Source: Pseudomonadota bacterium
Lineage (GTDB): Bacteria; Bdellovibrionota; FAC87; UBA2466
Assembly (NCBI GenBank): GCA_043718025.1
Contig: JAYSWN010000069.1
Coordinates: 3,698 to 67,697, forward strand
Direction of reading: 5' to 3'
Length of the DNA stretch: 64,000 bases
The position numbers and the translations under genes were made by a program. The stretch's first letter is position 1. The number at the start of each line of letters is the position of its first letter. This document shows positions 2,837 to 17,106 of this stretch, one piece after another. Below the pieces are notes generated by a model. The model had not been told where the DNA came from. It saw nothing but the letters and a program-made list of their open reading frames with translations, and ran no database searches.

Positions 2837-4243
2837 TTAGACAGCTTTTTTGATCGGGTCCGTGGCCTCTTTACCAGCCTGACCCCGCCGAGTTTGGTAG
2901 GTGAGCTCTTCGCTGCCAAGCACCATACGGTCCGACCACTCCACACCTTGCATAAAAGAGTGATCTTGGTTGGACACTTCGTATTTCCACGCGCCAAAAC
3001 GGCCACGGCTATAAAGACCGTGTTTTTCCAACTCTGGCTGGACGCGGTTCAAAATCGAGTCACGCTCAAGCGATGGCACCGGGTATCCGTACGGCGCGCG
3101 AAATTGAAATTGGCTGACAATCTCATCGCGCGACGAGATTAGGCCGGTAGTGCGGCAACCTTCGATTGTTTCCTGGATCAAAGTGTTGGGGTCAACCGGT
3201 TTGTACTTCGATTCTGAAACCTCAAGCATCAAAGACCACTGGTTTTTAGGATCGGGAACGTTGTTCGGCGAATAGTGGGAAAAAACCGTAACCCGATAAA
3301 ACGGACAATTTGCTTCGGGAAAGTACATCCAGCATTTTTTGGAAAGAGCGGCGGGAATTTTCCCTTTAAGCCCCAGTCCAATCACATTCGTTGACGAATG
3401 AAAAAGCTGGTTCGCCATTTTAGTCACCTGTGGATCCAGCCCCTTCACCTTTTCGCAAAACTGGTCGAGCGGCATGGTGTTAAGCAGTTCGGTGTAACCA
3501 ATGGTGCGGCCATCTTTTAAAGAAACCAACTTGGCTTTTGGATCGATACCGGTAACCACCGAGCCGGTAAGAATGCGATCGCGCCCCACTCGATTCGCCA
3601 CGCTTTCCCAAATCGAACCGGTGCCGCCATTTTTTGGAAAATGAAACGTGTTGTTCGGGCCCCACGAGACGTCGGCCTTTTGCTGAATAATATTTCCCAA
3701 AATCCGTTTCACATCCGGAACGCTGACTCTTTGACCAATCCAGCCATAAGACATGAGTTCGGGCGGCGTGGCCCACACTTTAAAATTGTAGGGCAACATA
3801 AAAATATCGGCGACCCCTTGCCCGAAAGAGGCCAGAATCCATTCCCTAAAATTGGCCGGCTTTTCGGCGCCGGGCTTGATGGTAAGTAATGGCTCCACGC
3901 ACTTCCAGGTGTCTTCCTGAGGGAGGTAGCGCAAATTATTTTGGAACGGATAGGGCACAAAGCGATCTTTGACCCAAACCCAGCTCTCCCGTTCGTGGTG
4001 AAGCCATTCTTTCCGCGGAACGGCCGTTTCCATTGCCTCATCAAAGTAGGTGTAGTGCGAAAACTGGACGTGACCACCGATGTCCCACACAAACCCTTTC
4101 TTATCGGTAATGCTTTTTGCGAGGCCGCCGACCTGAGGATCACTTTCTAAAATCACAAAATCGGTGATGCCGTGGTCAAGTAGGCGAATGGCGGCGCCCA
4201 GGCCAGTGGGTCCGGCGCCGATGATTACGTAGTTTTTTTTCAT
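2837..4243 (-). CDS. glf: FAD-dependent UDP-galactopyranose mutase, eukaryote-type (long ~470-510 aa form)
   Basis: N-terminal Rossmann motif VIIGAGPTGLGAA. Blocks that I recall as conserved in Aspergillus/Leishmania UGM are present: DIGGHVQFSHYTYFDE, PYPFQNNL, MLPYNFKVWA, KCWMYFPEANCPFYRVTVFSHYSP and SRGRFGAWKYEVSNQDHSF. Confidence 0.75.
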   Translation of the reverse strand: MKKNYVIIGAGPTGLGAAIRLLDHGITDFVILESDPQVGGLAKSITDKKGFVWDIGGHVQFSHYTYFDEAMETAVPRKEWLHHERESWVWVKDRFVPYPFQNNLRYLPQEDTWKCVEPLLTIKPGAEKPANFREWILASFGQGVADIFMLPYNFKVWATPPELMSYGWIGQRVSVPDVKRILGNIIQQKADVSWGPNNTFHFPKNGGTGSIWESVANRVGRDRILTGSVVTGIDPKAKLVSLKDGRTIGYTELLNTMPLDQFCEKVKGLDPQVTKMANQLFHSSTNVIGLGLKGKIPAALSKKCWMYFPEANCPFYRVTVFSHYSPNNVPDPKNQWSLMLEVSESKYKPVDPNTLIQETIEGCRTTGLISSRDEIVSQFQFRAPYGYPVPSLERDSILNRVQPELEKHGLYSRGRFGAWKYEVSNQDHSFMQGVEWSDRMVLGSEELTYQTRRGQAGKEATDPIKKAV

Positions 4244-4256
4244 GAACAGGTTTCTG

Positions 4257-5045
4257 TTAGGCAGAGGCTTTTTCAGCCCGCTCGGTATTTTTAGGAATAG
4301 GGAGTTCCGCTAAATGCTTTTTCCACACCGGTGCAGCACGACGAAAGGCCCGAATCTCACTAAAGCACCGGTTGCACACATCGAACAGACGTCGGTTAAG
4401 GGTGACCACCCCGGTTCGGCGTTCCCGGTGTGAAACGGGCATTTCCAGAAGGGTGCCCTTCGACTTAGCGGCCAAGATCGATAAGAAAATGTTAGGAATA
4501 AATACCCCGCGCGGCACCAGCGTCAAAAGACCGGCAAGAAAACGAGACTGCATCAAGCGAAACGGCACATTGGCATCGCGAATTTCAGCGCCAAAAAATA
4601 CGAGCAATAAGACCGCATTGAGTCTTGAAATCACTATCCGCACCAAGGGGTCATGGCGCACTTGACGGTACCCGAGAATAAAAGGGGCTTCGTACCGGGC
4701 ATCCCACAGCTTGCCAAAATCTTCGTGGTTAAATTGATCGTCACTATCGGTTTGAAAAACAAACTCGGGCCCGAGTCGCAACGCCTGCTCGTAGCCATTT
4801 CGCACCGCCTTGCCGTGGCCGGCGTTCTCCTGATGAACCACTTTTAAGCGGTGTTCCTTACGCGCCATCGCGTTCAAGACTTCGGCGGTATTATCGCGGG
4901 AGCCATCGTTGACGATGAGAAGTATCCCGTCGTAGGCCGACGCCACGCTTAACCAAGCGCGGGCAACCTTCTCAATGCACGCCGCTTCGTTGTAGGCCGG
5001 CATGACGATCACTAGATTTGGCGCGTTATTTTCTTGAAGTTTCAT
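4257..5045 (-). CDS. Family 2 glycosyltransferase of the polyprenol-phosphate sugar synthase type (Dpm1/GtrB/ArnC-like)
   Basis: GT-A fold N-terminus: VIVMPAYNEA, then the DGSRD (DxD-like) motif and the QTDSDDQ acidic motif. It lies immediately upstream of glf in a probable two-gene operon. Confidence 0.8.
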   Translation of the reverse strand: MKLQENNAPNLVIVMPAYNEAACIEKVARAWLSVASAYDGILLIVNDGSRDNTAEVLNAMARKEHRLKVVHQENAGHGKAVRNGYEQALRLGPEFVFQTDSDDQFNHEDFGKLWDARYEAPFILGYRQVRHDPLVRIVISRLNAVLLLVFFGAEIRDANVPFRLMQSRFLAGLLTLVPRGVFIPNIFLSILAAKSKGTLLEMPVSHRERRTGVVTLNRRLFDVCNRCFSEIRAFRRAAPVWKKHLAELPIPKNTERAEKASA

Positions 5046-5141
5046 TACGTTTATCGCTCCGTAAAATCTCGTAACGTTCCTAAGTTTATTGCAGAAACAT
5101 TCCGTTAAGTAAGAAACGAACCTCGGTAAAATAAAACCCTT

Positions 5142-7112
5142 ATGCAGTCCTTAACTCCGCATTCCGAACTCCCTACAAATCCAGCGGCATCGTTGCTGAG
5201 ACCCAAGCAGGGGCTAAAAGCGCTTGCCCTATTGATTCTATTTTTGGGAATTGGATTGCGAAGTGTGAATCTTGGAGTTCGTCCGTTACACCACGACGAG
5301 TCAATCCATGCGACGTTCAGCGCTCAGTGGGCCGAATCTCCAGATCGATCATTCTACAAGTACGACCCCACGTATCACGGGCCGTTTTTATATTGTATCA
5401 CCCGTTGGATTTTTCCACTCGTTGGCATCGGCACCGCCGAGGCCCGGCTGTTTCCCCTTTTGTTTGGTCTCTTAAGCTTGTTCTCGTCGTTGCTATTCTG
5501 CCGCTGGATCGGCGTGGCGGGAGCGGCGGTAACCTTTTCACTTCTCGCACTCAGCCCACTGATGGTCTACTACTCACGCTTTCTTGCTCACGACATGCCG
5601 AGCCTCTTTTTTGCCTCGCTCATGGCTTACGGCGTTCTTCGATTCTACGATGGCGTCGCAAACAAAAATTTTCGTGAGGTTCGTAATGCATTTCTGCTGA
5701 CGGCGGTGGCGCTCGGAGTGCTCTTTTCAGTAAAGACCGTGGCCGTACTCTATGCGTTTATCTTTCTCACTTTTTTTGGCTTCGAACTGGCTTTACGTAA
5801 GTGGAGCCAACAAACTGCATTCTGGCCAATTGAGTGGAAAGCTTTTTCCCTCTGGGCAATGCCGGCCATCCTCGGCATTTTAAGCTTTTCAGTGGCATAC
5901 GGAATTTTTCAAACTTCATTCTTCAATAATCCGGCGGCCTTTTTCGACGGCATCCTCGGAAAAAATTTATCCTACTGGTGGAATCAGCATAAAATTGAAC
6001 GACTGGTGGGACCCACCACTTTTCACCTTAGAAGTTTACTGCTGCACGAATTCCCCGCGTGCTTGATCCTAAGCATCGCCCTATTCCGTATCACCCTGCG
6101 TTGGCGGCATGGAAAATGGGCGTTAGCGGCGCTATTCGTTCTTTTTTTGGCCACCGTACCTTTTTCTTGGAGTCTAGAGCGCGACCTTCCCGGCTTTTTG
6201 CTCTCTTTATTCAAAGCGGCAAAGATGAAATCGTCGCCCGCCATTTTTCTCTACTCAATGTGTTTTGTGTTTGGAATTTTGGGCAGCTATCAACTGTGGA
6301 AAGAAAAACGCTTGCCGACCGCATTTTTAAACTATTGGACCTTCGCTTCGCTAGCCATTTACAGTTACGCCGGCGAAAAAGCGCCTTGGCTTACTCTGCA
6401 CGTTGCCTTTCCGGCGGTACTATTGTGCGGAGGCCTCCTTTCTCAACGCTTCACCGAAATGGCCGCCGCATTTAGACTATCGTGGCGGCTTCCGCTCGCT
6501 AGGCGCGTTGTGGCCGCCTCCTTTTTACTTTTACTTCTGTACCAAACACGCCTGGCCTATTTCGTTTCGCACGTGACCGCGGGCAAACCTACCGATCTTT
6601 TAAGTCAGGTGCACAACAGCGAAGATGTAAATCGCGTTTTAAATTGGATGCAACGCGAAGCCTTTGAGTCTGGCGAAAAAAATGAAGGCCTCACCATCGC
6701 CCTTGCTGGCAATGTAACCTGGGCGTTCTATTTCAAGTTCATTGAATTTGGATTCAAAAAGTTCGTTCTCGACGCTAAACAGGTAACCGGCAACGAGCGC
6801 TTTATTGTTAGTGACGAAGAAAACTCCAAGGCACTATCGGCCAAACTAGAGCCGTTGGGTTACCAAAAGATCCAGTACACCCACTCCGGATGGTGGGTAC
6901 CCGAACATAGTAAAGTGGGCTGGGGTGATTGGGTTGAATATGCCCTGTTTCGAAAACCAACGGGGGCGGTGGGAACCACAAAAATGTTTGTTTTTCACAA
7001 GCCAGCCGTCCATCCGACGCTTGCGCCCGTTCCGGCCTCCTCCCCGGGGGTTACCACGATTACCGGCCCACTGCGCGACACGGCCGCCAAAACCGTTTTG
7101 CCCACAAAATGA
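5142..7112 (+). CDS. Polytopic membrane protein resembling GT-C glycosyltransferases (PMT_2/ArnT-like N-terminus; resembles the TIGR03663 family)
   Basis: More than ten predicted TM helices. The first periplasmic loop carries HHDESIHA (the DE dipeptide) and TYHGPFLY (the HGP tripeptide), the hallmarks I recall for TIGR03663. Its stop overlaps the start of the next gene (ATGA). Confidence 0.65.
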   Translation: MQSLTPHSELPTNPAASLLRPKQGLKALALLILFLGIGLRSVNLGVRPLHHDESIHATFSAQWAESPDRSFYKYDPTYHGPFLYCITRWIFPLVGIGTAEARLFPLLFGLLSLFSSLLFCRWIGVAGAAVTFSLLALSPLMVYYSRFLAHDMPSLFFASLMAYGVLRFYDGVANKNFREVRNAFLLTAVALGVLFSVKTVAVLYAFIFLTFFGFELALRKWSQQTAFWPIEWKAFSLWAMPAILGILSFSVAYGIFQTSFFNNPAAFFDGILGKNLSYWWNQHKIERLVGPTTFHLRSLLLHEFPACLILSIALFRITLRWRHGKWALAALFVLFLATVPFSWSLERDLPGFLLSLFKAAKMKSSPAIFLYSMCFVFGILGSYQLWKEKRLPTAFLNYWTFASLAIYSYAGEKAPWLTLHVAFPAVLLCGGLLSQRFTEMAAAFRLSWRLPLARRVVAASFLLLLLYQTRLAYFVSHVTAGKPTDLLSQVHNSEDVNRVLNWMQREAFESGEKNEGLTIALAGNVTWAFYFKFIEFGFKKFVLDAKQVTGNERFIVSDEENSKALSAKLEPLGYQKIQYTHSGWWVPEHSKVGWGDWVEYALFRKPTGAVGTTKMFVFHKPAVHPTLAPVPASSPGVTTITGPLRDTAAKTVLPTK

Positions 7113-9238
7113 ACGCCATTTTTCAACACCTCTTCGGCATTCTGGGTTGGTCGGCGTTATCGCTTATTTTTGGCGCCGCCTGGTTTCCCTTGTTTGCGGC
7201 ACGCCTCTCACCTGACTTAGCCTGGCCGCTGTGCCGGTTGAGTGCCACCATTCTAGTTACCAGCTTTCATCTGTGGCCTGCCTTTTTGGGACGCGTTGCG
7301 CTTACTCCCTGGATTACGCTAGCTATCGTGGCGGTCATCGCCATCGGCACTCATTCATTCACGCGAATAACCGTAAAAGAAAATCTAAAACGTTTTTTTT
7401 CGAAAGAGAATTTGCGGCACGAAGGCTTTATTCTTGGTGTTTGTTTTCTGTTTTTACTGATCGTGCTGTTCATCCCCAACGTCGCGAGCTCGGGCGAGCG
7501 ACTGCGCGATACCGGTTATTGGGTTGCGCTCAACACCCAGAAGAAATTTCCGCTCCTTGACCCCTGGCTATCCGGAGTGAGCGTTCCTTACTATCTGCTG
7601 GGATACTTGGCCGACTTGGAAGTGTTTCAATTTTTGCCGGTCTCAACCCTTATCCAATATAACTTAGGATTGATTGTCGCCCCCGCGCTCTACGCGTTTG
7701 CCTTACGCATGTTTTTTCGTTTGGTCTGGCCGGGCTCCAGGCTGGCCGGAGCGGCAGCGATGTGCCTACTGCTGGCCTGCAATTTTCGTAGCGTGGAGCA
7801 GGCCATCTCCCATATTTTTAGAAATGCCCCCTTTCAGTTCTGGGACTCTTCACGCGTTATTCCGGGAACGATCAACGAGTTCCCTCTCTGGACTGCTTCT
7901 TTGGGAGACTTACACGCCCATCTAATGAGTTTGTGGATTTTGCCAACCCTATTAGCGGTAGGAATCTACTTCCTATTCTTGAAACAGAAAGAAAGGGGAC
8001 TCCCTCAAGGTTTCTCCTTAGCTGAGCTAAGCATTTTTTCCTTTTTGACTTCGTGGTCCTACGGCATGAACACCTGGGAATTTCCGATTATCATTGCGGT
8101 GAGTCTTATTTCTATCGTGGGTAGCAGCCGTAATCAGGGTAAAAAACAGATCCTAAAATATTTGGCGTTCTTCGGGCTGGCCACGATGGTGCTTTGTCTA
8201 CCCTACGCCCTAACTTCGGCTAGCGGCCCCACCTCATTTTCATTCGTTAACCAAAGAACAAGCGCCTGGCCGATGTTTCAGGTCTTTGGTCTTTTCTTTA
8301 TCCCGCTCATGACTTTGAGCGCGAAAAGAGCCTACGACTCCGGAAAGAGAGAGTTGTTGGCGGCAATGGGACTGGCGGTGACTTTAATCTTCATTCTAGA
8401 CTCAGGGCTGGCCATGGTTACTACGGTTAGCTTCTTTCTCGGTACGACGCTTCTTTGGCGTCGGGAGAGTGAACGGATATTGGCGTTAATGGCCTACGGC
8501 GGGCTCTTACTCGTTGGATTTTGCGAGGTGGCCCACCTAAAAGATGCCTTCGGCGGTGATCTGGCCCGCATGAACACGGTGTTCAAATTTTACGTTCCCG
8601 CATTTACGTTGTTGGGAGTTTCGGCATTGCTGGCCTGGAAAGAGCTGCTGCCTTTATTTTCGACAACTCGGTTACAATGGTGCGCATTCGGCGGTTTAGC
8701 GTTTTGGTTAGTGGCCAGCAGTTCATATTTGGCCTTCGGATTGCGAAGCCGCACCAACGGTTTCCGGGTGCCGGCAAACTTCGATGGCTATGGCGAGCTG
8801 CGCAACTATTCCCCCGACGACGCCGTCGTGATCAACTGGATGGCCGAAGAAGTAAGACGGGGCGAGCTGAAGGGGACTTTGCTTGAGGTTATTGGCGGGG
8901 CCTACAGTTGGACCGGTCGGGCCGCCTCATTTACTGGTCTTGAAACGTACGCCGCGTGGGAAGGTTATAGCTACTGGTCTCACACCGGAAACGACGGTTT
9001 AATGCGAAGTCGCAGCAAAACAGCAAAAATGATTTTTGACGGCAGTTACTTCAACGCCGCGCCGTCCTGTGGCGATTTCACCGAAAAACTCCGCCAGTTG
9101 AAAATCAATTACGTCTTCGTGGGCAAAGAAATGAAGACTAACGTTGCTCCCTATACGAGAGATAAAATGGACACGTGCCTACTCCCTCTTCGGCGCCAAG
9201 GCATCGCCGCCCTGTACTCCGTTCCCGCGACCCGTTAA
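7109..9238 (+). CDS. Large polytopic membrane protein, 'YYY-domain' type (resembles TIGR03662/DUF2298), partner of the upstream GT-C-like protein
   Basis: 709 aa, highly hydrophobic with many TM segments. VPYYLLGY tyrosine motif, plus the conserved-looking INEFPLWTASLGDLHAHL loop. It is translationally coupled to the preceding gene. Confidence 0.55.
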   Translation: MNAIFQHLFGILGWSALSLIFGAAWFPLFAARLSPDLAWPLCRLSATILVTSFHLWPAFLGRVALTPWITLAIVAVIAIGTHSFTRITVKENLKRFFSKENLRHEGFILGVCFLFLLIVLFIPNVASSGERLRDTGYWVALNTQKKFPLLDPWLSGVSVPYYLLGYLADLEVFQFLPVSTLIQYNLGLIVAPALYAFALRMFFRLVWPGSRLAGAAAMCLLLACNFRSVEQAISHIFRNAPFQFWDSSRVIPGTINEFPLWTASLGDLHAHLMSLWILPTLLAVGIYFLFLKQKERGLPQGFSLAELSIFSFLTSWSYGMNTWEFPIIIAVSLISIVGSSRNQGKKQILKYLAFFGLATMVLCLPYALTSASGPTSFSFVNQRTSAWPMFQVFGLFFIPLMTLSAKRAYDSGKRELLAAMGLAVTLIFILDSGLAMVTTVSFFLGTTLLWRRESERILALMAYGGLLLVGFCEVAHLKDAFGGDLARMNTVFKFYVPAFTLLGVSALLAWKELLPLFSTTRLQWCAFGGLAFWLVASSSYLAFGLRSRTNGFRVPANFDGYGELRNYSPDDAVVINWMAEEVRRGELKGTLLEVIGGAYSWTGRAASFTGLETYAAWEGYSYWSHTGNDGLMRSRSKTAKMIFDGSYFNAAPSCGDFTEKLRQLKINYVFVGKEMKTNVAPYTRDKMDTCLLPLRRQGIAALYSVPATR

Positions 9239-9309
9239 GAAACGCCCCACTTTCTTCATTTAGCGCACTTGGCGCAGGAGCTATGACAAGGATAGAATAG
9301 AAAACCACC

Positions 9310-10659
9310 ATGCGATCTCTCATCAAGACAATAGCCGGTTGGGGTAACTTTCCTGCCTATCCGTGCCGCCTTTTTCGTGCCGAACGGCTTCGCGAACAAA
9401 AAGAGATTCTTTGCACTCCAAACGAAAGTTTCATCGCCCGCGGTTTGGGCCGGGCCTACGGCGATGCCGCCATCAATGCGGATCATGGCGTCGTACTGCA
9501 AGAACGCTTCAACCGTTTCCTTGCTTTTGATCAAGCCAGCGGAATGCTGGAATGTGAAGCCGGGGTTTCCTTTGAAGATCTGCTTCAAACTTTTGTGCCC
9601 CGTGGCTTTTTTCCGCCGACCACGCCGGGAACCAAGTTTATCACCGTGGGTGGCGCCGTTGCCGCCGACGTTCACGGCAAAAACCACCACTGCGATGGCA
9701 GTTTTTCCAAATCAGTTGATAGTTTTCGCTTGATGCTGGCCAATGGCGACGTAGTCACGGCGTCGCGCACCGACCATGCCGATCTCTTCTGGGCCACCAT
9801 CGGCGGCATGGGACTTACCGGGATTCTTACCTCGGTAAAATTTCGCCTGAGCAAAATCCCCTCCTCACGCCTCAATGTGCATTTTGAAAAAACCAAGAGC
9901 CTAGACGAAACATTGGCGCGTTTCACTACCACCGATGCGCAATTCGCCAATTCTGTGTGCTGGTTAGATACCGTGGCGTCCGGCAGCAAGCTGGGTCGAG
10001 CCGTGATGATGTTAGGAAATTTCGCCACGCCGGCTGAGTTGGGCGGAATGAAACGATTGAACGAAGTGTCTTTTTCAAAAAAGCGCAATGTTCCCTTTTT
10101 TCTTCCGGAGTTTGTTTTGAATTCGCTTAGCGTCAGCCTTTTTAACCGGGCTTACTACGCTCACTTTTCAAACGGCAGCAATAAAGTACAGACCATCGAC
10201 CAATACTTTTACCCGCTCGACGCGATCGACAACTGGAACCGTGGCTACGGCAAGTCGGGTTTTTTGCAATTTCAAGCGGTGTGGCCCAATGAGCAATCGG
10301 CCGCGGCACTGAAGAAGACCTTAGAAGAGATTCAGAAAGCGGGAGCCAACGCCTTTCTCGCGGTTTTAAAAACGATGGGGGCCAAGAGCGAAGGCATGCT
10401 GTCCTTTCCAATCGCTGGCCACACCTTAGCGCTCGACATTCCTTATCGCGGTAAAAAAACGGAAGCGTTGGCAAAACGTTTGAATGCCCTCACGTTAGAT
10501 TTTGGCGGAAGAGTTTATTTAGCTAAAGACGCTTTTCTTACCCGCGAGCAGACCCAGAAAATGTATCCCGACTTCGATAAGTTTTTAGCCGTGAAACACA
10601 AGTACGATCCTAACGGCCGCTTCGCCTCATCGCTTTCGAAAAGACTGGGTCTGGTGTAA
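9310..10659 (+). CDS. dprE1: Decaprenylphosphoryl-beta-D-ribose 2'-oxidase homologue (FAD-binding, DprE1 family)
   Basis: Matches my memory of M. tuberculosis DprE1 along its length: RGLGRAYGD, ITVGGAVAADVHGKNHHCDGSF, LFWATIGGMGLTGI, KLGRA, QYFYPLD..WNRGYG..GFLQFQ, LSFPIAG, LDFGGRVYLAKD, RFASSLSKRLGL. Confidence 0.85.
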   Translation: MRSLIKTIAGWGNFPAYPCRLFRAERLREQKEILCTPNESFIARGLGRAYGDAAINADHGVVLQERFNRFLAFDQASGMLECEAGVSFEDLLQTFVPRGFFPPTTPGTKFITVGGAVAADVHGKNHHCDGSFSKSVDSFRLMLANGDVVTASRTDHADLFWATIGGMGLTGILTSVKFRLSKIPSSRLNVHFEKTKSLDETLARFTTTDAQFANSVCWLDTVASGSKLGRAVMMLGNFATPAELGGMKRLNEVSFSKKRNVPFFLPEFVLNSLSVSLFNRAYYAHFSNGSNKVQTIDQYFYPLDAIDNWNRGYGKSGFLQFQAVWPNEQSAAALKKTLEEIQKAGANAFLAVLKTMGAKSEGMLSFPIAGHTLALDIPYRGKKTEALAKRLNALTLDFGGRVYLAKDAFLTREQTQKMYPDFDKFLAVKHKYDPNGRFASSLSKRLGLV

Positions 10660-11402
10660 TGGGAAACGATTCAAACTTTGTCATGGTGGTCGGCGCTACT
10701 TCGGGAATGGGCCAGGCCGTAGCACGAGCGTTTGCAGCCCAAAAGAGAAACCTTTTTTTGCTCGGCCGCGACATGCTTGCGCTCGAGACAATGGTAACGG
10801 ATCTCACTATACGATACGACGTCGTGGTGAAGGCGTTCTCCTTTGAAGCTACTGATTTCCAAGCCCACGGGGCACTACTAAATGACGAGCTCTTGGGGCA
10901 GGTTCAGGGCGCGGTACTTTGCCAAGGTTACCTTAATGATAACGCCGCCTCGCGTGTGGACTTTTTCGAATGGAAGACCACGCTCGACGTAAATTTCACG
11001 TCGGTGGTCTCCTGCCTTACGCCCATGGCCAATTTTTTTGAAAAGAGAAAAAGCGGGTTTCTCTGCGTAGTTGGCTCGGTGGCGGGGGTGCGCGGACGCC
11101 AAAGCAATTACGTATATGGTTCGGCTAAGGCCGCGGTTTCTATTTTTTTAGAGGGTCTCCGCCATCGGCTATTTAAGTCTAATGTTTCGGTCACCGAAAT
11201 ACGGCCCGGATTCGTCGACACCAGTATGACGTTTGGTATGCCCGGCCTATTCCTTGTGGCTTCACCGGAAAAAGTGGCCGCCGATATTTTGAAGGCCATC
11301 GAGAAAAAAAGCGCGGTTCGCTATACGCCCTTCTTTTGGTTGGGCATTTTAACGATCATCCGCTGCCTTCCCCGCTTCCTCTTCCACCGCTCAAAACTCT
11401 AA
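10659..11402 (+). CDS. dprE2: Decaprenylphosphoryl-2-keto-pentofuranose reductase homologue (SDR, DprE2 family)
   Basis: SDR Gly motif VVGATSGMGQAV and catalytic YGSAKAA. The C-terminal half aligns with Mtb DprE2 (NYVYGS.KA....F.EGL......V.V.EIRPG.V.T.M). The start overlaps the dprE1 stop (TAATG). Confidence 0.8.
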   Translation: MGNDSNFVMVVGATSGMGQAVARAFAAQKRNLFLLGRDMLALETMVTDLTIRYDVVVKAFSFEATDFQAHGALLNDELLGQVQGAVLCQGYLNDNAASRVDFFEWKTTLDVNFTSVVSCLTPMANFFEKRKSGFLCVVGSVAGVRGRQSNYVYGSAKAAVSIFLEGLRHRLFKSNVSVTEIRPGFVDTSMTFGMPGLFLVASPEKVAADILKAIEKKSAVRYTPFFWLGILTIIRCLPRFLFHRSKL

Positions 11403-13007: not shown

Positions 13008-13982
13008 ATGGCAGACAAAACTATCTCTAAGTTCATTGAGCACCATTTCCGACATTTCAACGCTGCGGCGTTGGTTGATGCCGCAAAGGGGTACCAAAAG
13101 CATTTAGACGCCGGCGGCACCATGTTTATGACCTTAGCGGGGGCCATGAGCACCGGGGAGTTGGGTCTGTCGCTGGCCGAGATGATTCGCAAAGGAAAAG
13201 TGCACGCCATTTGTTGCACCGGCGCGAACCTAGAAGAGGATGTTTTTAACCTCGTCGCCCATAAATCTTACAAACGCATTCCTCATTACCGCGACCTCAC
13301 GCCGGCCGATGAAACCGAGTTGTTAAGCCATCATTTAAATAGGGTAACCGACACCTGTATTCCCGAAGAAGAGGCGATTCGCAAACTTGAGCACGTCATC
13401 ATTGAAGAGTGGACCAACGCCTCTGAAAGGGGTGAGCGGTATTTACCGCACGAGTACTTCTACAAGGTCTTGCTTTCGGGAAAACTAAAGTCCGAATACG
13501 AAATTGACCCGGCTAACAGCTGGATGCTGGCCGCCGCCGAACGTAATTTGCCAATCATTGTTCCGGGCTGGGAAGACTCAACGTTAGGAAACATTTTTGC
13601 GGCGCGCTGCATGGAAGGCAAACTCAAGGTCAATGCCATGAAATCAGGCATTGAGTACATGATGCAGATGTCAGCCTATTACTTAGAAAACTGCCGTAAG
13701 GGCAAAGGCATCGGTTTTTTTCAAATTGGTGGCGGCATCGCCGGCGATTTTCCGATCTGCGTGGTGCCGATGCTGAATCAAGATCTGCTTAAAGACGTGC
13801 CGGTATGGGCGTACTTTTGCCAAATTAGCGACTCGACCACGAGCTACGGCTCTTACTCGGGCGCGGTGCCCAATGAAAAGATTACCTGGGGCAAGCTCGA
13901 CATCGACACCCCAAAATTTATCATTGAATCGGATGCGTCCATCGTTGCGCCCTTGATCTTTGCCCATGTGTTGGGATGGTAG
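13008..13982 (+). CDS. Deoxyhypusine synthase-like protein (DHS/homospermidine-synthase family)
   Basis: The C-terminal block IGGGIAGDFPI...SYGSYSGAVPNEKITWGKLDID...ESDASIVAPLIFA aligns with the human DHPS segment GGGVVKHHI...DGSDSGARPDEAVSWGKIR...ADASLVFPLLVA. Confidence 0.8.
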   Translation: MADKTISKFIEHHFRHFNAAALVDAAKGYQKHLDAGGTMFMTLAGAMSTGELGLSLAEMIRKGKVHAICCTGANLEEDVFNLVAHKSYKRIPHYRDLTPADETELLSHHLNRVTDTCIPEEEAIRKLEHVIIEEWTNASERGERYLPHEYFYKVLLSGKLKSEYEIDPANSWMLAAAERNLPIIVPGWEDSTLGNIFAARCMEGKLKVNAMKSGIEYMMQMSAYYLENCRKGKGIGFFQIGGGIAGDFPICVVPMLNQDLLKDVPVWAYFCQISDSTTSYGSYSGAVPNEKITWGKLDIDTPKFIIESDASIVAPLIFAHVLGW

Positions 13983-14779
13983 GCCCGGCCCTAGTAGTAA
14001 AAGACCTCATTAAACATTATAAGGGGCGCCAAAAAGTAGAGGCGGTAAATGGCGTTTCGTTTACGGTTAACCCTGGCCAATGCTTTGGGCTTTTGGGTCC
14101 AAATGGCGCCGGTAAATCTACCACCATCAATTGCCTCATCGGCTTTTTTCCGCCCACGTCGGGCTCGGTGCAGGTGATGGGATTCGATGTTCATCACGAA
14201 CCCAAAAAAGCACGACAGCTTTTGGGCGTTTGCCCGCAAGAAGACACCCTAGATACTGACTTTACGGTGCGCGATCAGCTGATCCGTCATGCCACTTTTT
14301 TCCGGATGCCCGCCGCCGACGCCAAACGCCGCGCCGACGAGCTACTTGAGCGATTCGGCCTCAGCGGTAAGGGTAAGGAGTTGGTCGAACGGCTCTCCGG
14401 TGGAATGCGCCGCCGCCTACAAGTGGCGCGGGCATTAATCTCCAGCCCAAAAGTTCTAGTGCTGGATGAACCTACCACCGGCCTAGATCCCGACGCCCGT
14501 CGCACGTTGTGGGACATTTTAGAAGAGTACCGCGCCAAGGGGCTCGCGATCTTACTTACCACCCATTACATGGAAGAGGCCGAGCGCCTCTGCGATCGCA
14601 TTGCCTTGATTAAAGACGGAAAAATTTTAGACGAAAACTCGCCGCGCGCCCTGATCGACAGGCACGTCGCCAAAGAGTGGGTTGAAGAGGAGATCCGCCC
14701 CGGCGTCAAATGGAAACGCCCCGCAAACCTCGAAGACGTCTATTTAACCATTACCGGCAGTAAACTGGCGGAGGCATAA
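13976..14779 (+). CDS. ABC transporter ATP-binding protein (ABC-2 exporter type)
   Basis: Walker A GPNGAGKST, signature LSGGMRRRLQ, Walker B VLVLDEPTTGLD. Overlaps the DHS-like gene by 7 bp. Confidence 0.9.
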   Translation: MVGPALVVKDLIKHYKGRQKVEAVNGVSFTVNPGQCFGLLGPNGAGKSTTINCLIGFFPPTSGSVQVMGFDVHHEPKKARQLLGVCPQEDTLDTDFTVRDQLIRHATFFRMPAADAKRRADELLERFGLSGKGKELVERLSGGMRRRLQVARALISSPKVLVLDEPTTGLDPDARRTLWDILEEYRAKGLAILLTTHYMEEAERLCDRIALIKDGKILDENSPRALIDRHVAKEWVEEEIRPGVKWKRPANLEDVYLTITGSKLAEA

Positions 14780-14781
14780 AA

Positions 14782-15552
14782 ATGGGCGACACTTTTTGGG
14801 CCATTCGGTGCGTGTACTTTCGCTACCTGGCGGTCTTCCGTAAAAATGTTTTATACAGTTTGATGACCACCATCGTGGAACCCCTGCTCTATGTCCTCTC
14901 GTTCGGCTTTGGTCTAGCCACCATGATTCATGAAGTGGGTGTCGGAGACAAAACCATCGGCTACCGCGCCTTTGTGCTCTCGGGCTTCGTCGGCCAGAGC
15001 GTACTTTTTCAGGGTTTTTTCGAGGCGGCCTACGGCGGCTTTGTGCGCATGTACTACCAAAAGATTTTTAAAGCCATGGCCACGACGCCGGTGACGATCG
15101 AAGAGGTCTTGTGGGGAGAGTTAACCTGGGACGCCACTAAGGGTACTCTATCCGCCGGCATGGTTTTGCTCATTGGCAGCCTGCTCGGCGATTTTTCTCC
15201 GTGGGGCGCCGTCGTGCTCTTTCCCCTGTGCTACATTTTTTGCTTTATCTTTGCCGGTCTTGGCCTTTGGGTGTCGTCGCTAGCCACCACGATTGATCAA
15301 CTGGCGTACCCGCAATACCTTTTTGTTTTTCCCATGTTCCTATTCGGCGGTGTTTACTTCCCCATCGATAAGCTGCCCTCATTCGTAAGCAAAGCGGCGT
15401 GGTTTCTCCCGCTTACGCCTTGCTTAGAGATCACGCGAGGACTGCTCTTTGAGGTTTCCATCGCCTGGTATGCCTGGGTGCTGGTGGCCTTTTGGGCCGT
15501 ACTGCTACCTGTCACCTCACACGCGGCGATGAAACGCCGGCTAGTGAAGTAG
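14782..15552 (+). CDS. ABC-2 family transporter permease
   Basis: Six hydrophobic segments. Immediately downstream of the ABC ATPase. Confidence 0.7.
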   Translation: MGDTFWAIRCVYFRYLAVFRKNVLYSLMTTIVEPLLYVLSFGFGLATMIHEVGVGDKTIGYRAFVLSGFVGQSVLFQGFFEAAYGGFVRMYYQKIFKAMATTPVTIEEVLWGELTWDATKGTLSAGMVLLIGSLLGDFSPWGAVVLFPLCYIFCFIFAGLGLWVSSLATTIDQLAYPQYLFVFPMFLFGGVYFPIDKLPSFVSKAAWFLPLTPCLEITRGLLFEVSIAWYAWVLVAFWAVLLPVTSHAAMKRRLVK

Positions 15553-15606: not shown

Positions 15607-17106
15607 ATGATCGTTGCGAAGGATTTTAAAATCTCACCTGAGTTCATTGCCACGGTGGATGCTCATATTCGCGCGGGAGAATTTGAAAAGGCGCGCCGGG
15701 CGTTGCGAAGTTTGAAGCGGGCCAAAATAGGTTTTACTTTCGTTGAACCGATCGCCGCCCTTTGCCGGCGAGCCGGGCTCGCCGAATTGGCCGTTCACGT
15801 CTTAAACCCCCACTTCTCAAACACTCAAGAGCGGGCAAAAAAACCCAGCGATTCACTGGTCATTGAATACGCATCGAGCCTTTCACAAATTGGGGCCGCC
15901 GAAGAGGCGTTTCTTCTTTTGCAAAAACTTGATGATAAAAATTCGCCCCGCGCGCTTTTCGCCATGGTGACCAGTTTAGTGCCACAGTGGGATTACGAAG
16001 GCACCATTGCCTACCTAAAGTCTTTCTTGAATATTGAGAAGAAGGACGCCTACATGCGACTGGTGGCCGAAATCAACCTGGCGGCGGCCTACGTAGCGAC
16101 CGAACGGTACGAAGAGGCCGGGCGAGAGTTAAAAGTGATTCACAATGAAGCCGCCCGTACCAAATCAAAATTGATTCAGGCCAATGCCCTGCAGCTATCG
16201 GCGCAGTGCGCAATACTAAATGGCGATTGGCGCGGGGGCGAAGAGGCTTTAAATCAATCGGCCAAGCTATTTGAAAAAACCCACGATACGCGAATTGGCC
16301 TGTTCGTTGAGAAATGGCGCACCTTTCTTTTGCTTCGGCGAAACGGCTACTCAAAAAATGTAGGCCGACAACTTGAAGGGGTGCGAACCAAAGCCCGAAA
16401 AGTCGGCCATTGGGAGACCCTTCGAGAGTGTGATCGCTACCAAGCCGACGCCCAAGATAACCTTGAGCTGGCCACCCACCTCTATTTTGGCACCCGCTGG
16501 CCCAAGTACCGCGATCGCATTAGAAAGCGTTTTTCGCTCCCCACTCACTATGAATGGAAACCCGAGGGAGAATCGGAAAAAGTGTTTGAACTATCGACCG
16601 GAAAATACGATGGCCGCACCACCCACTTGAAGTTGGGCCAACTTCCGCACGCCATATTAAACGCCTTGTGCGGCGATTTTTACCGGCCGCTGCGCCTGGC
16701 CACATTTCATCATCTGGTTTTTCCGAACCAGAGCTTCAATCCCGTTCATTCGGCCAATTGCCTGCATCGAGCGCTGTCGCGTTTTCGCGCGTGGACCAAA
16801 ACAAACCGACTCCCCTTCGGCGTTGCCTATGAAGAGGGGCTTTACCGGATTGAGCTCAAAAAGCCCGTCGGTTTTCTGTTAAGGGAAGGCGTGCCGCGGG
16901 AACGCAAAGACTGGCAGTTAACCCAATTGCGCCGGCGCCTTGCGGCGGCTGAGTTTCGGTTAACCCAAGTGACCACCTTGCTGACGGTCTCGGCGTCAAA
17001 CGCACGCCGACTTATGCAAAATGCGGTGAGTATAGGAGTGATAGAAAAAATTGGCGGCGGTCGCGGGTCACGCTATCGCTTCGTTAGAGATCCCGATATT
17101 TCCTAA
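15607..17106 (+). CDS. Hypothetical helical (TPR-like) protein with a C-terminal winged-HTH-like segment
   Basis: Largely alpha-helical repeat-like sequence. The C-terminus LTQVTTLLTVSASNARRLMQNAVSIGVIEKIGGGRGSRYRF resembles an HTH. No confident family assignment. Confidence 0.45.
   Translation: MIVAKDFKISPEFIATVDAHIRAGEFEKARRALRSLKRAKIGFTFVEPIAALCRRAGLAELAVHVLNPHFSNTQERAKKPSDSLVIEYASSLSQIGAAEEAFLLLQKLDDKNSPRALFAMVTSLVPQWDYEGTIAYLKSFLNIEKKDAYMRLVAEINLAAAYVATERYEEAGRELKVIHNEAARTKSKLIQANALQLSAQCAILNGDWRGGEEALNQSAKLFEKTHDTRIGLFVEKWRTFLLLRRNGYSKNVGRQLEGVRTKARKVGHWETLRECDRYQADAQDNLELATHLYFGTRWPKYRDRIRKRFSLPTHYEWKPEGESEKVFELSTGKYDGRTTHLKLGQLPHAILNALCGDFYRPLRLATFHHLVFPNQSFNPVHSANCLHRALSRFRAWTKTNRLPFGVAYEEGLYRIELKKPVGFLLREGVPRERKDWQLTQLRRRLAAAEFRLTQVTTLLTVSASNARRLMQNAVSIGVIEKIGGGRGSRYRFVRDPDIS

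Follow-up and report, generated by a model that had tools for sequence, protein, structure and literature searches.

The open reading frame at positions 2837-4243 of the window (the whole 64-kb stretch of DNA that was analysed) very probably encodes a real UDP-galactopyranose mutase (UGM) of the so-called "eukaryotic" class. Base composition, synteny and phylogeny indicate that the gene is native to the Bdellovibrionota-like bacterium that carries it. It is adjacent to a gene for a predicted polyprenyl-phosphate (Pren-P) glycosyltransferase of family GT2, and candidate flippase and GT-C genes are transcribed divergently from this pair (Table 1). We consider it reasonably probable that this native, long-class mutase, the GT2 and the membrane proteins form a lipid-linked galactofuranose (Galf) route for transfer outside the cytoplasm.

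Table 1. Position, strand and basis of assignment for features of the mutase locus
Feature	Position	Strand	Size and basis
Probable long-form (AfUGM/TcUGM-class) UDP-galactopyranose mutase	2837..4243	-	468 aa, ATG start; PDB phmmer, UDP-Galp contacts
Short GT2, predicted polyprenyl-phosphate glycosyltransferase (ArnC/GtrB/DPMS-like)	4257..5045	-	DxDxQ, Foldseek, PDB sequence match
Intergenic region separating the divergent GT2-mutase and membrane-protein/DprE operons	5046..5141		96 bp; gene coordinates
Agl23-family polytopic membrane protein, ~10 TM; candidate flippase and/or GT-C	5142..7112	+	NCBIfam TIGR03663
DUF2298/chlor_Arch_YYY polytopic membrane protein, ~9 TM or more; GT-C-like candidate	7109..9238	+	Pfam, Foldseek
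DprE1-like FAD-dependent oxidase	9310..10659	+	PDB match to M. smegmatis DprE1
DprE2-like short-chain dehydrogenase/reductase	10659..11402	+	NCBIfam DprE2 model

Identity and origin of the mutase

When compared with all PDB sequences by phmmer, the protein matched the T. cruzi UGM (4dsg) over residues 5-451 with E=2.2e-143, and thirteen A. fumigatus UGM entries, 3uka and 3ute among them, at approximately 1e-136. The next matches were to the polyamine oxidase FMS1 (E 7e-6) and covered only the N-terminal 58-residue FAD-binding motif; no bacterial Glf structure was found below 1e-3. Identity to the T. cruzi and A. fumigatus enzymes (TcUGM and AfUGM) was 47-49%, and these two are themselves 49.5% identical. 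An initial annotation, made from the sequence alone, had called the protein a long-form, eukaryote-type UGM, and the full-length matches bear this out; every block that it quoted was present in the translation (GAGPTGLGAA, DIGGHVQFSHYTYFD, PYPFQNN, PYNFKVWA, CWMYFPEANCPFYRVTVFSHYSP and SRGRFGAWKYEVSNQDHSF). To our knowledge, the long class has so far been characterised in fungi and kinetoplastids only.

The protein had also been described as unlike the bacterial Glf of roughly 380 residues, and our comparisons agree. BLASTP identity to E. coli K-12 Glf was approximately 20% (E 7e-4), and a Pfam scan at E<1e-3 returned Amino_oxidase and NAD_binding_8 only, with no GLF domain. Classical prokaryotic Glf was defined by a match to the GLF model or by at least 35% identity to the E. 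coli, K. pneumoniae or M. tuberculosis enzyme, and the window protein shows neither. A search of the 64-kb window for a second, classical Glf found none, the sole weak match being the long-form gene. With the classical enzymes (E. coli K-12, K. pneumoniae, M. tuberculosis and D. radiodurans) the protein shares the predicted reaction, the overall flavoenzyme architecture and, by a check of alignment columns, the catalytic His, two Arg and some Tyr. It differs from them in its length of 468 aa, compared to 367 aa, and in having the uridine-binding Q107, which is absent from bacterial UGMs (PMC3624792).

The resemblance to the eukaryotic UGMs (T. cruzi 4DSG, A. fumigatus 3UTE/3UKA, and the Leishmania and Leptomonas GLF) extends over the full length of the protein. 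As in those enzymes, there are about 100 residues more than in prokaryotic Glf, and the G-G-H histidine loop that was reported to be unique to eukaryotic UGMs (PMC3624792) is present. The window protein, known here from its sequence, is distinguished from them by its bacterial host, its predicted operon with a Pren-P-type GT2 and a Ser in place of AfUGM G456; in addition, it lacks a segment around residues 347-365 of the A. fumigatus enzyme.

The residues of AfUGM that contact UDP-Galp are Y104, F106, Q107, F158, N163, W167, R182, N207, Y317, R327, Y419, Y453 and N457 (PMC3624792, Table 3). In our alignment all 13 were identical in the window mutase, so that each uridine, diphosphate and galactose contact is conserved, and among 122 bacterial homologs 12 of the 13 were invariant, with F106 kept in 115. 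The histidine loop G61-G62-H63 corresponds to G56-G57-H58, the FAD contacts R447, Q458 and S461 to R415, Q426 and S429, and the GxGxxG motif to GAGPTG at residues 9-14. The substitution at G456 was the sole difference among the loop and FAD positions checked; this position is Ser in 115 of the 122 bacterial homologs and Ala in the remaining 7.

Long-form mutases are common in bacteria. At E<=1e-30 the family comprises at least 1,081 clusters of 50% identity, and the 336 genome matches were distributed over approximately 15 bacterial phyla, including cultured Aquirufa. The enzyme had been thought to reflect a poorly sampled bacterial lineage; instead, the family is well sampled but badly annotated, as its bacterial members are mostly mislabelled "protoporphyrinogen oxidase". 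Therefore, the capacity to make Galf is probably under-called in many genomes. Beverley et al. reportedly defined the eukaryotic GLF class in 2005. Because the long class with its G-G-H loop is abundant across bacterial phyla, the division into "eukaryotic" and "prokaryotic" UGMs, on which a drug-target literature is based, appears to be a sampling artefact.

Composition, synteny and phylogeny were examined for the origin of the gene. Its GC content was 0.511, compared to 0.518+/-0.023 in the window, its GC3 was 0.584 compared to 0.583+/-0.037, and its codon-usage distance was low. The mutase and its flanks were syntenic in two Bdellovibrionota-type MAGs (loci L002 and L003), at 72-73% identity. 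In the tree, in which the named eukaryotic representatives taken from cluster look-ups were the Leptomonas UGM and one algal fragment, the mutase grouped with bacterial sequences and apart from the T. cruzi/Leptomonas/A. fumigatus branch, with bootstrap support of 100 for the Bdellovibrionota-type relatives and 66 for other bacterial phyla. Native status is concluded from these three results. A plasmid collection held distant homologs only (30-40%), from Streptomyces and Pantoea.

Three other readings of this gene were weighed against that of a native UDP-Galp mutase. The initial annotation had offered horizontal acquisition as one explanation and proposed phylogeny, GC content and codon usage as checks. 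The best-characterised relatives are indeed eukaryotic, but recent transfer from a eukaryote is already effectively refuted: bacterial homologs are 57-85% identical to the mutase and eukaryotic ones 47-49%, the compositional values are typical of the window, related MAGs are syntenic, and the tree places the gene among bacteria. The flavin amine oxidases and protoporphyrinogen oxidases had been raised there as well, and this identity could be read from the Pfam Amino_oxidase match (E 1e-12) and from the name "protoporphyrinogen oxidase" that both JGI and NCBI give to many homologs. We regard it as having almost no chance of being correct, as the NCBIfam protoporphyrinogen oxidase model (TIGR00562) reached 21.6 bits, where its cutoff is 97.85, and did so over residues 2-58 only, PDB amine and polyamine oxidases align at the N-terminal FAD motif only, and the UGM active site is fully present. 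A further suggestion, that the mutase acts on a UDP-sugar other than UDP-Gal (UDP-GalNAc, UDP-L-Arap or another), has more to recommend it. Beside DprE1/E2 operons there are mutase-like paralogs (L124, L125 and L127) that have diverged at the sugar and uridine contacts, so the fold can evidently be re-targeted, and characterised UGMs have some activity on UDP-Arap. This substrate assignment is nonetheless disfavoured and in our judgement quite improbable, because the AfUGM contacts are identical, including the galactose-contacting R182, N207 and N457 with the surrounding W315, Y334 and F66 (AfUGM numbering), and because 4 of 10 long family members carry a GalE-type 4-epimerase fused to the mutase domain.

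The short GT2 and its pairing with the mutase

The GT2 gene is upstream of the mutase gene, separated from it by 13 nt and predicted to be in the same operon. An extended DxDxQ motif, which binds metal and diphosphate, marks the polyisoprenyl-phosphate GT2s (DPMS, GtrB, ArnC, WpsA and GacI; PMC10821137). The window GT2 has this motif as DSDDQ at residues 100-104. It was found in all 22 short GT2s, comprising the window protein and 21 orthologs beside long-form mutases, and in none of 18 proteins from the other GT2 family that occurs beside mutases. When the AF2 model (pLDDT 92.7, with lower confidence for the C-terminal helices 219-261) was compared with the PDB by Foldseek, ranks 1-23 were all ArnC, GtrB or DPMS (TM-score 0.55-0.73), with other GT2s lower and no GlfT2 structure among the 50 matches listed. 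The best PDB sequence match was also ArnC (E 1e-9). Given the distribution of the motif and the top 23 structural matches, we predict that the GT2 is a polyprenyl-phosphate glycosyltransferase. At 262 aa, compared to 300-355, it appears to be without the C-terminal TM hairpin of GtrB and ArnC, and a crude hydropathy scan flagged two segments. This hairpin is also missing from members of the PpgS/DPM1 type.

The same short GT2 was directly upstream of the mutase and co-oriented with it at 21 of 80 genome loci. These loci belong to at least five phyla (Bdellovibrionota, Bacteroidota, Planctomycetota, Verrucomicrobiota and CPR), and their mutases fall in at least five mutase clades. In the reciprocal test, a mutase was downstream in 4 of 6 GT2 relatives, and in Aquirufa the two genes overlap by 4 nt. 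The initial annotation had taken the placement beside a polyprenyl-P GT2 to fit a role in making a furanose donor; the GT2 gene is real, and we consider its placement meaningful because the pairing recurs in these 21 genomes.

Membrane proteins and the DprE1/E2-like pair

A consensus promoter scan of the divergent intergenic region gave nothing above shuffle expectation, the nearest promoter-like matches being at 5235-5378. The terminator consensus scan was likewise not above shuffle expectation, and an Rfam scan of the window gave no match.

The Agl23-family protein scored 241.9 bits with TIGR03663, above the cutoff of 126.25. Agl23 has been described as a hexose-P-dolichol flippase, and haloarchaeal Agl23 has been linked to the handling of hexose-P-dolichol donors in extracellular glycosylation. 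At L014 and L034, Agl23 orthologs directly after the mutase also passed the Pfam PMT_2 cutoff. The start of the DUF2298 gene overlaps the Agl23-family gene by 4 nt, and its product matched Pfam DUF2298 with E 4.9e-61 and shared no more than 29% identity with the nearest relatives. Its AF2 model (pLDDT 86.8, pTM 0.90) matched only DPY19, yeast STT3 and human STT3A in the PDB by Foldseek at E<1e-3, with probability 1.00 but a TM-score of only 0.33-0.36. Alignment by hhalign found no relationship between DUF2298 and Agl23/PMT_2-type proteins, the alignments being shallow, and PDB sequence searches with the two window proteins gave no matches. The haloarchaeal Agl23/chlor_Arch_YYY pair (TIGR03663/TIGR03662) shows the same two families side by side; the window differs in its bacterial host and in their linkage to a mutase, a Pren-P GT2 and DprE1/E2.

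GT-Cs and GT-C candidates verified by HMM usually accompanied the GT2-mutase pair. These were Agl23/PMT_2 proteins at L014 and L034, PMT_2 at L015, L017 and L061, GT87 with PMT_2 at L007, and DUF2298 in the window, L024 and L170; within 10 kb of the Aquirufa loci no GT-C was found. A crude enrichment of large polytopic proteins near GT2-linked mutases (17/19 vs 12/54, p=3e-7) was set aside because MFS and Wzx proteins are included in the count; those at the Aquirufa loci are MFS.

M. smegmatis DprE1 was matched by the DprE1-like protein with E 2.9e-85 in the PDB, and the NCBIfam DprE1 model gave 429 bits, under its equivalog cutoff of 500. The DprE2-like protein was likewise under the cutoff of its model (E 1.4e-40, 139.5 bits, cutoff 250), and its start overlaps the DprE1-like stop. 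Adjacent DprE1 and DprE2 genes were found at 67 of 80 related loci, and a UbiA-type synthase was directly upstream at 47 of 60 evaluable related DprE loci. No UbiA-type polyprenyl-phosphoribose synthase (PPPRS) was detected in the 64-kb window by hydropathy and Pfam or in the adjoining sequence on its left; the other multi-TM proteins in the window were an EamA transporter and an ABC-2 permease only. As in the mycobacterial decaprenyl-P-arabinose pathway (UbiA/Rv3806c, DprE1, DprE2 and Emb/Aft), the two homologs are adjacent, translationally coupled and beside GT-C-like proteins. The window differs from that pathway in having no UbiA-type synthase and in both homologs scoring below the equivalog cutoffs. 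Their placement had likewise been taken to fit the making of a furanose donor; the genes and their link to the mutase are real, but the link is rare (the window, L003 and L167). DprE1/E2 homologs have joined the mutase module here and, independently, at a second, distant locus, with a UbiA-type synthase near neither. Two ORFs between DprE1 and GT2 at L003 were considered as PPPRS and GtrA but proved to be an ABC transporter and a DUF1761 protein.

A predicted lipid-linked galactofuranose route

In the proposed route, the mutase would interconvert UDP-Galp and UDP-Galf: N5 of the reduced FAD attacks C1 and UDP is released, after which the ring contracts and UDP attacks again. The co-transcribed GT2 would then load Galf from UDP-Galf to form polyprenyl-P-beta-D-Galf, and the divergently transcribed Agl23-like and DUF2298 proteins would flip this donor lipid and pass its Galf to a periplasmic acceptor. 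The identity of the mutase and its conserved mechanism are backed by sequence; the GT2, flipping and transfer steps we infer. Such a route would carry over to a hexofuranose the three-component scheme of GtrA/GtrB/Gtr* and of PPPRS/flippase/GT-C.

The locus resembles GtrA/GtrB/Gtr*, ArnC/ArnT and the pentofuranose PPPRS-MATE-GT136 system (Kelly et al. 2024; PMC11127046) in its predicted combination of a polyprenyl-P loading enzyme, a candidate flippase and a GT-C outside the cytoplasm. It differs in that the predicted sugar is a hexofuranose supplied by an embedded mutase, of which we found no report in the open-access literature. Furthermore, the flippase candidate is Agl23-like rather than GtrA or MATE, and the GT-C candidates are of the DUF2298, Agl23 or PMT_2 types rather than GT136 or Gtr*. 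A search of the same literature for polyprenyl-, undecaprenyl- or dolichyl-P-Galf returned nothing relevant, the matches to "Galf-P" being "Galf-PS".

We know of no characterised galactofuranosyltransferase that uses anything but UDP-Galf in the cytoplasm or Golgi. The conserved module of mutase, Pren-P GT2 and GT-C predicts that Galf is carried by a lipid donor and added to acceptors outside the cytoplasm. On balance we lean, by a small measure, towards polyprenyl-P-Galf as the donor for extracytoplasmic galactofuranosylation, which even without epimerisation would be a new type of donor. If so, the three-component paradigm would extend from hexopyranoses and pentofuranoses to hexofuranoses. 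As the module is present in cultured Aquirufa isolates, the prediction is directly testable.

The mutase could alternatively supply only cytoplasmic Leloir galactofuranosyltransferases encoded elsewhere, with the GT2 making an unrelated polyprenyl-P-pyranose (e.g. Pren-P-Glc or Pren-P-Galp) for the GT-Cs and the adjacency reflecting no more than a common glycan island. The short GT2 was missing at 59 of the 80 long-form mutase loci, which are ordinary polysaccharide clusters with GT2/GT4 enzymes and Wzx or ABC (Wzm/Wzt) transporters; the family as a whole therefore probably feeds mostly cytoplasmic Leloir glycosyltransferases. The GT2 also occurred without a mutase at L164 and at L165, the latter retaining an Aquirufa-type GT2 locus, so the GT2 does not appear to be strictly tied to UDP-Galf. 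Against these observations stand the tight coupling of the two genes, with their short gap in the window and overlap in Aquirufa, and the maintenance of the pairing in at least five phyla and at least five mutase clades. Moreover, several loci, among them L014, L024 and L034, have the GT2, mutase and GT-C with no Leloir glycosyltransferase adjoining, and no other glycosyltransferase was found in the 64-kb window. We therefore consider a purely Leloir role unlikely for the window genes and prefer the lipid-linked route.

The DprE1/E2-like pair may contribute to this lipid-linked route in either of two ways. It could provide a second lipid-linked furanose, D-Araf from polyprenyl-P-Ribf, with a UbiA-type synthase encoded elsewhere, or it could epimerise the GT2 product. 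In the latter case, the pair would first oxidise polyprenyl-P-beta-D-galactofuranose at C2 and then reduce it again, yielding a talofuranose donor, which is the lipid-linked 2-epimer, or a hexofuranose modified in another way; we offer this as a speculation that is more probably wrong than right by a wide margin. If C2 epimerisation does occur, the cluster would be the counterpart, for a hexofuranose, of the mycobacterial DPR-to-DPA pathway and would supply GT-C enzymes. DprE1/E2 homologs have been recruited repeatedly with no UbiA-type synthase, which poses a concrete and testable question about the epimerisation of lipid-linked furanoses. The stereochemistry of polyprenyl-P-beta-D-galactofuranose at C1 and C2 matches that of beta-D-ribofuranose.

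Identity and substrate of the mutase

The ORF at the left of the glycan cluster had been read initially as a eukaryote-type, long-form UDP-galactopyranose mutase (UGM) unlike bacterial Glf, and this reading was upheld by PDB, Pfam and BLASTP comparisons. Every sequence block quoted in that initial annotation was present in the translation. Against all PDB sequences, the top match was the T. cruzi UGM (TcUGM, 4dsg; E 2.2e-143, residues 5-451), with thirteen entries for A. fumigatus UGM (AfUGM) next in rank at about 1e-136. Polyamine oxidases ranked after the UGMs and matched only the first ~58 residues, which hold the FAD-binding motif, and no bacterial Glf structure was found below 1e-3. The best matches were not flavin amine oxidases or protoporphyrinogen oxidases without a UGM active site. 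Global identity by MAFFT alignment was 49% to TcUGM and 47% to AfUGM, which are themselves 49.5% identical, and E. coli K-12 Glf was 20% identical by BLASTP (E 7e-4); identity between the eukaryotic and prokaryotic UGM classes is 14-18% (PMC3624792). In Pfam the hits were confined to Amino_oxidase and NAD_binding_8, and the GLF domain was absent. Protoporphyrinogen oxidase was rejected as an identity, the NCBIfam model scoring 21.6 bits where the cutoff is 97.85. Judged by its sequence, the enzyme adds a new, uncharacterised member to the known UGM family.

AfUGM ligand contacts (Table 3 of PMC3624792) were mapped by MAFFT alignment with AfUGM and TcUGM sequences from the PDB search alignments, and the AfUGM numbering was verified on His63. 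All 13 UDP-Galp contacts were identical in the window UGM (Y104, F106, Q107, F158, N163, W167, R182, N207, Y317, R327, Y419, Y453 and N457), as were the G61-G62-H63 loop, R91, W315, Y334, R447, Q458 and S461; the sole notable contact substitution was G456 to Ser. Across 122 bacterial homologs, 12 of the 13 contacts were invariant and F106 was retained in 115. The protein is a predicted mutase whose long-form UGM active site is complete. A substrate other than UDP-Gal had also been suggested, and the identity of all these contacts argues against it. A GalE-type NAD-dependent epimerase is fused to the mutase domain in four of ten long family members (P0146, P0176, P0179 and P0229), which independently supports UDP-Gal as the family substrate. 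The two-glycine histidine loop is said to be unique to eukaryotic UGMs (PMC3624792). It was found in every bacterial homolog examined; "eukaryotic" is therefore a sampling label, and "eukaryote-type" is misleading as a name for these sequences.

Five other proteins fuse the long-form mutase domain to DUF3431 (P0144, P0169, P0174, P0177 and P0272). These are probably eukaryotic, because P0177 additionally bears GT90, and DUF3431 itself may represent a transferase domain related to Galf.

Distribution and origin of the long-form family

A word-indexed search gave at least 8000 candidate homologs, the best 120 being 56-100% identical to the window UGM. Named proteins among these 120 were bacterial and labelled "protoporphyrinogen oxidase", "amine oxidase" or "FAD-dependent oxidoreductase", names that JGI, NCBI and UniRef systematically give to such homologs. 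NCBIfam has no model capturing long-form mutases, and its PRK07208 'hypothetical protein' models fell below cutoff. An exhaustive comparison with 50%-identity representatives yielded 1,081 clusters at E<=1e-30; at E<=1e-10 the count was 3,927. We also scanned one genome per GTDB species, a set without the window's own genome, for peptide patterns specific to the window UGM. This found 336 stretches encoding the mutase, the best 80 of which span about 15 phyla: Bdellovibrionota, Bacteroidota (including cultured Aquirufa), Planctomycetota, Spirochaetota, Armatimonadota, Verrucomicrobiota, Myxococcota, Acidobacteriota, Gemmatimonadota, Sumerlaeota, Chloroflexota, Pseudomonadota, Patescibacteria, Bacillota and Actinomycetota.

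The initial annotation had explained the gene by horizontal acquisition or by a poorly sampled bacterial lineage. The number of clusters at the stricter threshold and the spread over phyla speak against poor sampling. As regards acquisition, comparison with the flanking genes revealed no compositional deviation: GC was 0.511 versus 0.518+/-0.023 for 60 window genes, GC3 was 0.584 versus 0.583+/-0.037, codon-usage distance was typical of these genes, and the GC profile of the window was flat. The closest loci, in a Bdellovibrionota MAG and a "Deltaproteobacteria" MAG (72-73% identity), share the GT2-mutase...hyp153-HPRT synteny with the window. In a bootstrapped NJ tree, most of whose representatives carry no taxon name, the window UGM clustered with close relatives at bootstrap 100, and this group joined other bacterial phyla at 66; a separate, weakly supported branch held the T. 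cruzi and A. fumigatus enzymes together with a Leptomonas UGM representative. The composition, synteny and bacterial grouping all argue against recent acquisition, and the gene is neither foreign nor rare. A passing remark in PMC3494510 already notes that bacteria have homologs of the Ciona and algal UGMs. Large plasmids or chromids also carry more distant homologs, whose annotation goes no further than FAD-dependent oxidoreductase (H1-H10 of a plasmid collection). Those in Streptomyces have about 40% identity, and those in Pantoea, Erwinia and Acinetobacter about 30%.

A GT2-mutase pair with membrane-protein partners

A short GT2 and, behind it, the mutase make up a two-gene operon, and a 96-bp spacer separates this operon from four divergently transcribed genes. 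The initial placement of the mutase beside a polyprenyl-P-type GT2 and DprE1/E2 was borne out. The other Pfam-scanned window genes were housekeeping genes, proteases or without match. No glycosyltransferase was among them, and we therefore delimit the glycan island to 2837-11402.

Features of the glycan island and of other genes in the window
Feature	Coordinates	Strand	Remarks
Long-form mutase	2837..4243	-	468 aa, ATG start (ORF list)
Short GT2	4257-5045	-	262 aa; ends 13 nt before mutase start codon
Agl23-family membrane protein	5142-7112	+	TIGR03663, 242 bits vs cutoff 126
DUF2298/chlor_Arch_YYY membrane protein	7109-9238	+	Pfam/NCBIfam
DprE1-like oxidase	9310-10659	+	E 3e-85 to M. smegmatis DprE1
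DprE2-like SDR	10659-11402	+	NCBIfam
Deoxyhypusine-synthase-family gene	13008-13982		Pfam DS, E 2e-41
ABC-2 transporter pair	13976-15552		beside the preceding gene
ORF	15607-17106		499 aa; no Pfam match at thresholds used
ORF	21882-24713		943 aa; no Pfam match at thresholds used
ORF	28767-30602		611 aa; no Pfam match at thresholds used

In the syntenic locus L003, an ABC-2 transporter pair, matched to that of the window by family only, sits between DprE1 and GT2 instead.

ArnC enzymes were the best PDB sequence matches of the window GT2. The DxDxQ motif, a proposed hallmark of polyisoprenyl-phosphate GT2s (PMC10821137), occurred as DSD[D/G]Q in this protein and all 21 orthologs adjoining long-form mutases. 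Another GT2 family, of ~338 aa and found 3' of the mutase in other genomes, lacked the motif in each of 18 members. With an AlphaFold model (pLDDT 92.7, built on 44 homologs), the top 23 Foldseek matches were all ArnC, GtrB or dolichyl-phosphate mannose synthase (TM 0.55-0.73), above other GT2s. The protein is accordingly classed, at the sequence level, as a predicted Pren-P-type GT2.

ORFs within 6 kb of the mutase were clustered in the 80 genomes holding the best of the 336 stretches. The short GT2 lay directly upstream in the same orientation in 21 loci (median gap -9 nt; the genes overlap in Aquirufa) from Bdellovibrionota, Bacteroidota, Planctomycetota, Verrucomicrobiota and CPR, and the linked mutases formed at least five clades plus singletons. 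The other 59 genomes had the mutase without this GT2, in ordinary polysaccharide clusters (other GT2/GT4, Wzm/Wzt, Wzx). Searching from the GT2 side, we found the mutase immediately downstream in four of six diverse relatives, and absent there in L164 and L165. L165:3875-6355 has exact Aquirufa-type synteny (Acyl_transf_3-GT2, then CMD, AhpC, LysR) with the mutase missing between GT2 and CMD, which suggests gene loss or a GT2 able to use another donor.

Outside Aquirufa, whose loci had no GT-C nearby, a large polytopic protein nearly always stood beside the pair. HMM searches identified these as predicted enzymes using polyprenyl-P-monosaccharide donors: Agl23 family and PMT_2 (L014, L034), PMT_2 (L017, L061, and two copies in L015), GT87 and PMT_2 (L007), a weak PMT (L068) and DUF2298 (L024, L170). 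Agl23 is a putative hexose-P-dolichol flippase, and the purified protein translocated lipid-linked glycans in vitro (PMC11182771). The window DUF2298 protein gave a confident model (pLDDT 86.8, pTM 0.90) with PDB fold matches below E 1e-3 only to DPY19, yeast STT3 and human STT3A, all GT-C enzymes, at probability 1.00 but TM only 0.33-0.36. Because profile comparison with PMT_2-type proteins showed no relationship, we regard its GT-C membership as only likely. L017, a Bdellovibrionales MAG, also has a second mutase-like gene (L017:9049-10416, 24% identity) 3 kb 3' of its GT2-mutase-GT-C module.

Proposed pathway and possible role of DprE1/E2

By sequence, a complete UGM active site, a Pren-P-type GT2 and GT-C/flippase-type membrane partners are found in conserved linkage. 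The mutase would convert UDP-Galp to UDP-Galf, from which the inverting GT2 would form polyprenyl-P-beta-D-Galf on polyprenyl-P. This lipid would then be translocated, with the Agl23-like protein as candidate flippase, and Galf transferred to a periplasmic acceptor by the DUF2298 and/or Agl23-like protein. The same logic underlies GtrA/GtrB/Gtr* systems and the three-component system described by Kelly et al. (PMC11127046), with a hexofuranose here and a pentofuranose in the latter. A full-text search of the open-access literature returned nothing relevant on a polyprenyl-, undecaprenyl- or dolichyl-P-Galf donor. From linkage, motifs and predicted structures, the cluster looks like a new hexofuranose variant of three-component extracytoplasmic glycosylation. 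The prediction is specific, and the GT2-mutase module is widespread and present in cultured Aquirufa.

For comparison we took 80 metagenomic loci whose DprE1 relatives are 37-48% identical to the window protein. DprE2 adjoined DprE1 in 67, a ~311-aa UbiA-type protein (polyprenyl-phosphoribose synthase, PPPRS; NDxxDxxxD motif) lay directly upstream in 48, a GtrA-like gene occurred in 17, and a long-form mutase above 30% identity in none. Where upstream sequence sufficed to judge, 47 of 60 loci had UbiA. No UbiA-type gene was found in the 64-kb window or in the sequence beyond its left end. DprE1/E2 and GT2-mutase also occur together in L003 and in the L167/L170 operon, which encodes DprE1-like (36% identical), DprE2-like (40%), GT2 (47%) and mutase (58%) proteins and a 12-TM 788-aa protein, with GT2 overlapping DprE2 by ATGA. 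Within 10 kb are two DUF2298 genes, a PMT-type GT-C and a GalE-type epimerase, and no UbiA. L170:1-20753 (ENA ERZ27297427 k119_644953), distant from the window, repeats its whole component set, and a GT4 is also nearby. The two mutase-associated DprE1 lineages have different UbiA-linked DprE1s as nearest relatives; by this phylogenetic signal, recruitment of DprE1/E2 to GT2-mutase occurred independently at least twice.

We lean slightly towards a cluster whose products are a pair of lipid-linked furanoses, Galf and D-Araf, both destined for one glycan; the phosphoribose synthase would then lie elsewhere in the genome. This is supported by the 22% of canonical DprE1 loci without adjacent UbiA, and by L015:5913-15459, from an uncultured Cytophagia MAG. 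There, a HAD+UbiA fusion with the PPPRS-PRP architecture that Kelly et al. 2024 described lies directly upstream of GT2-mutase together with its own PMT_2 GT-C, and the second PMT_2 GT-C lies downstream; the locus gives the impression of a pair of lipid-linked furanose systems sharing one cluster. DprE1/E2 might instead act on polyprenyl-P-Galf and yield its 2-epimer. By our own stereochemical reasoning the C1/C2 configuration of polyprenyl-P-Galf is that of beta-D-ribofuranose; we consider this role improbable.

Mutase-like proteins of ~500 aa, 25-26% identical to the window UGM, directly follow canonical UbiA-DprE1-DprE2 operons in three loci (L124:5364-6866, L125:3903-5405 and L127:12025-13536). 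They retain the catalytic core (GGH, R182, R327, Y317, Y419, Y453, N457), with altered uridine (Q107 to K/R, F106 to L, N163 to T) and galactose contacts (N207 to I, Y334 to W), and seem to form a family of diverged paralogs with another substrate.
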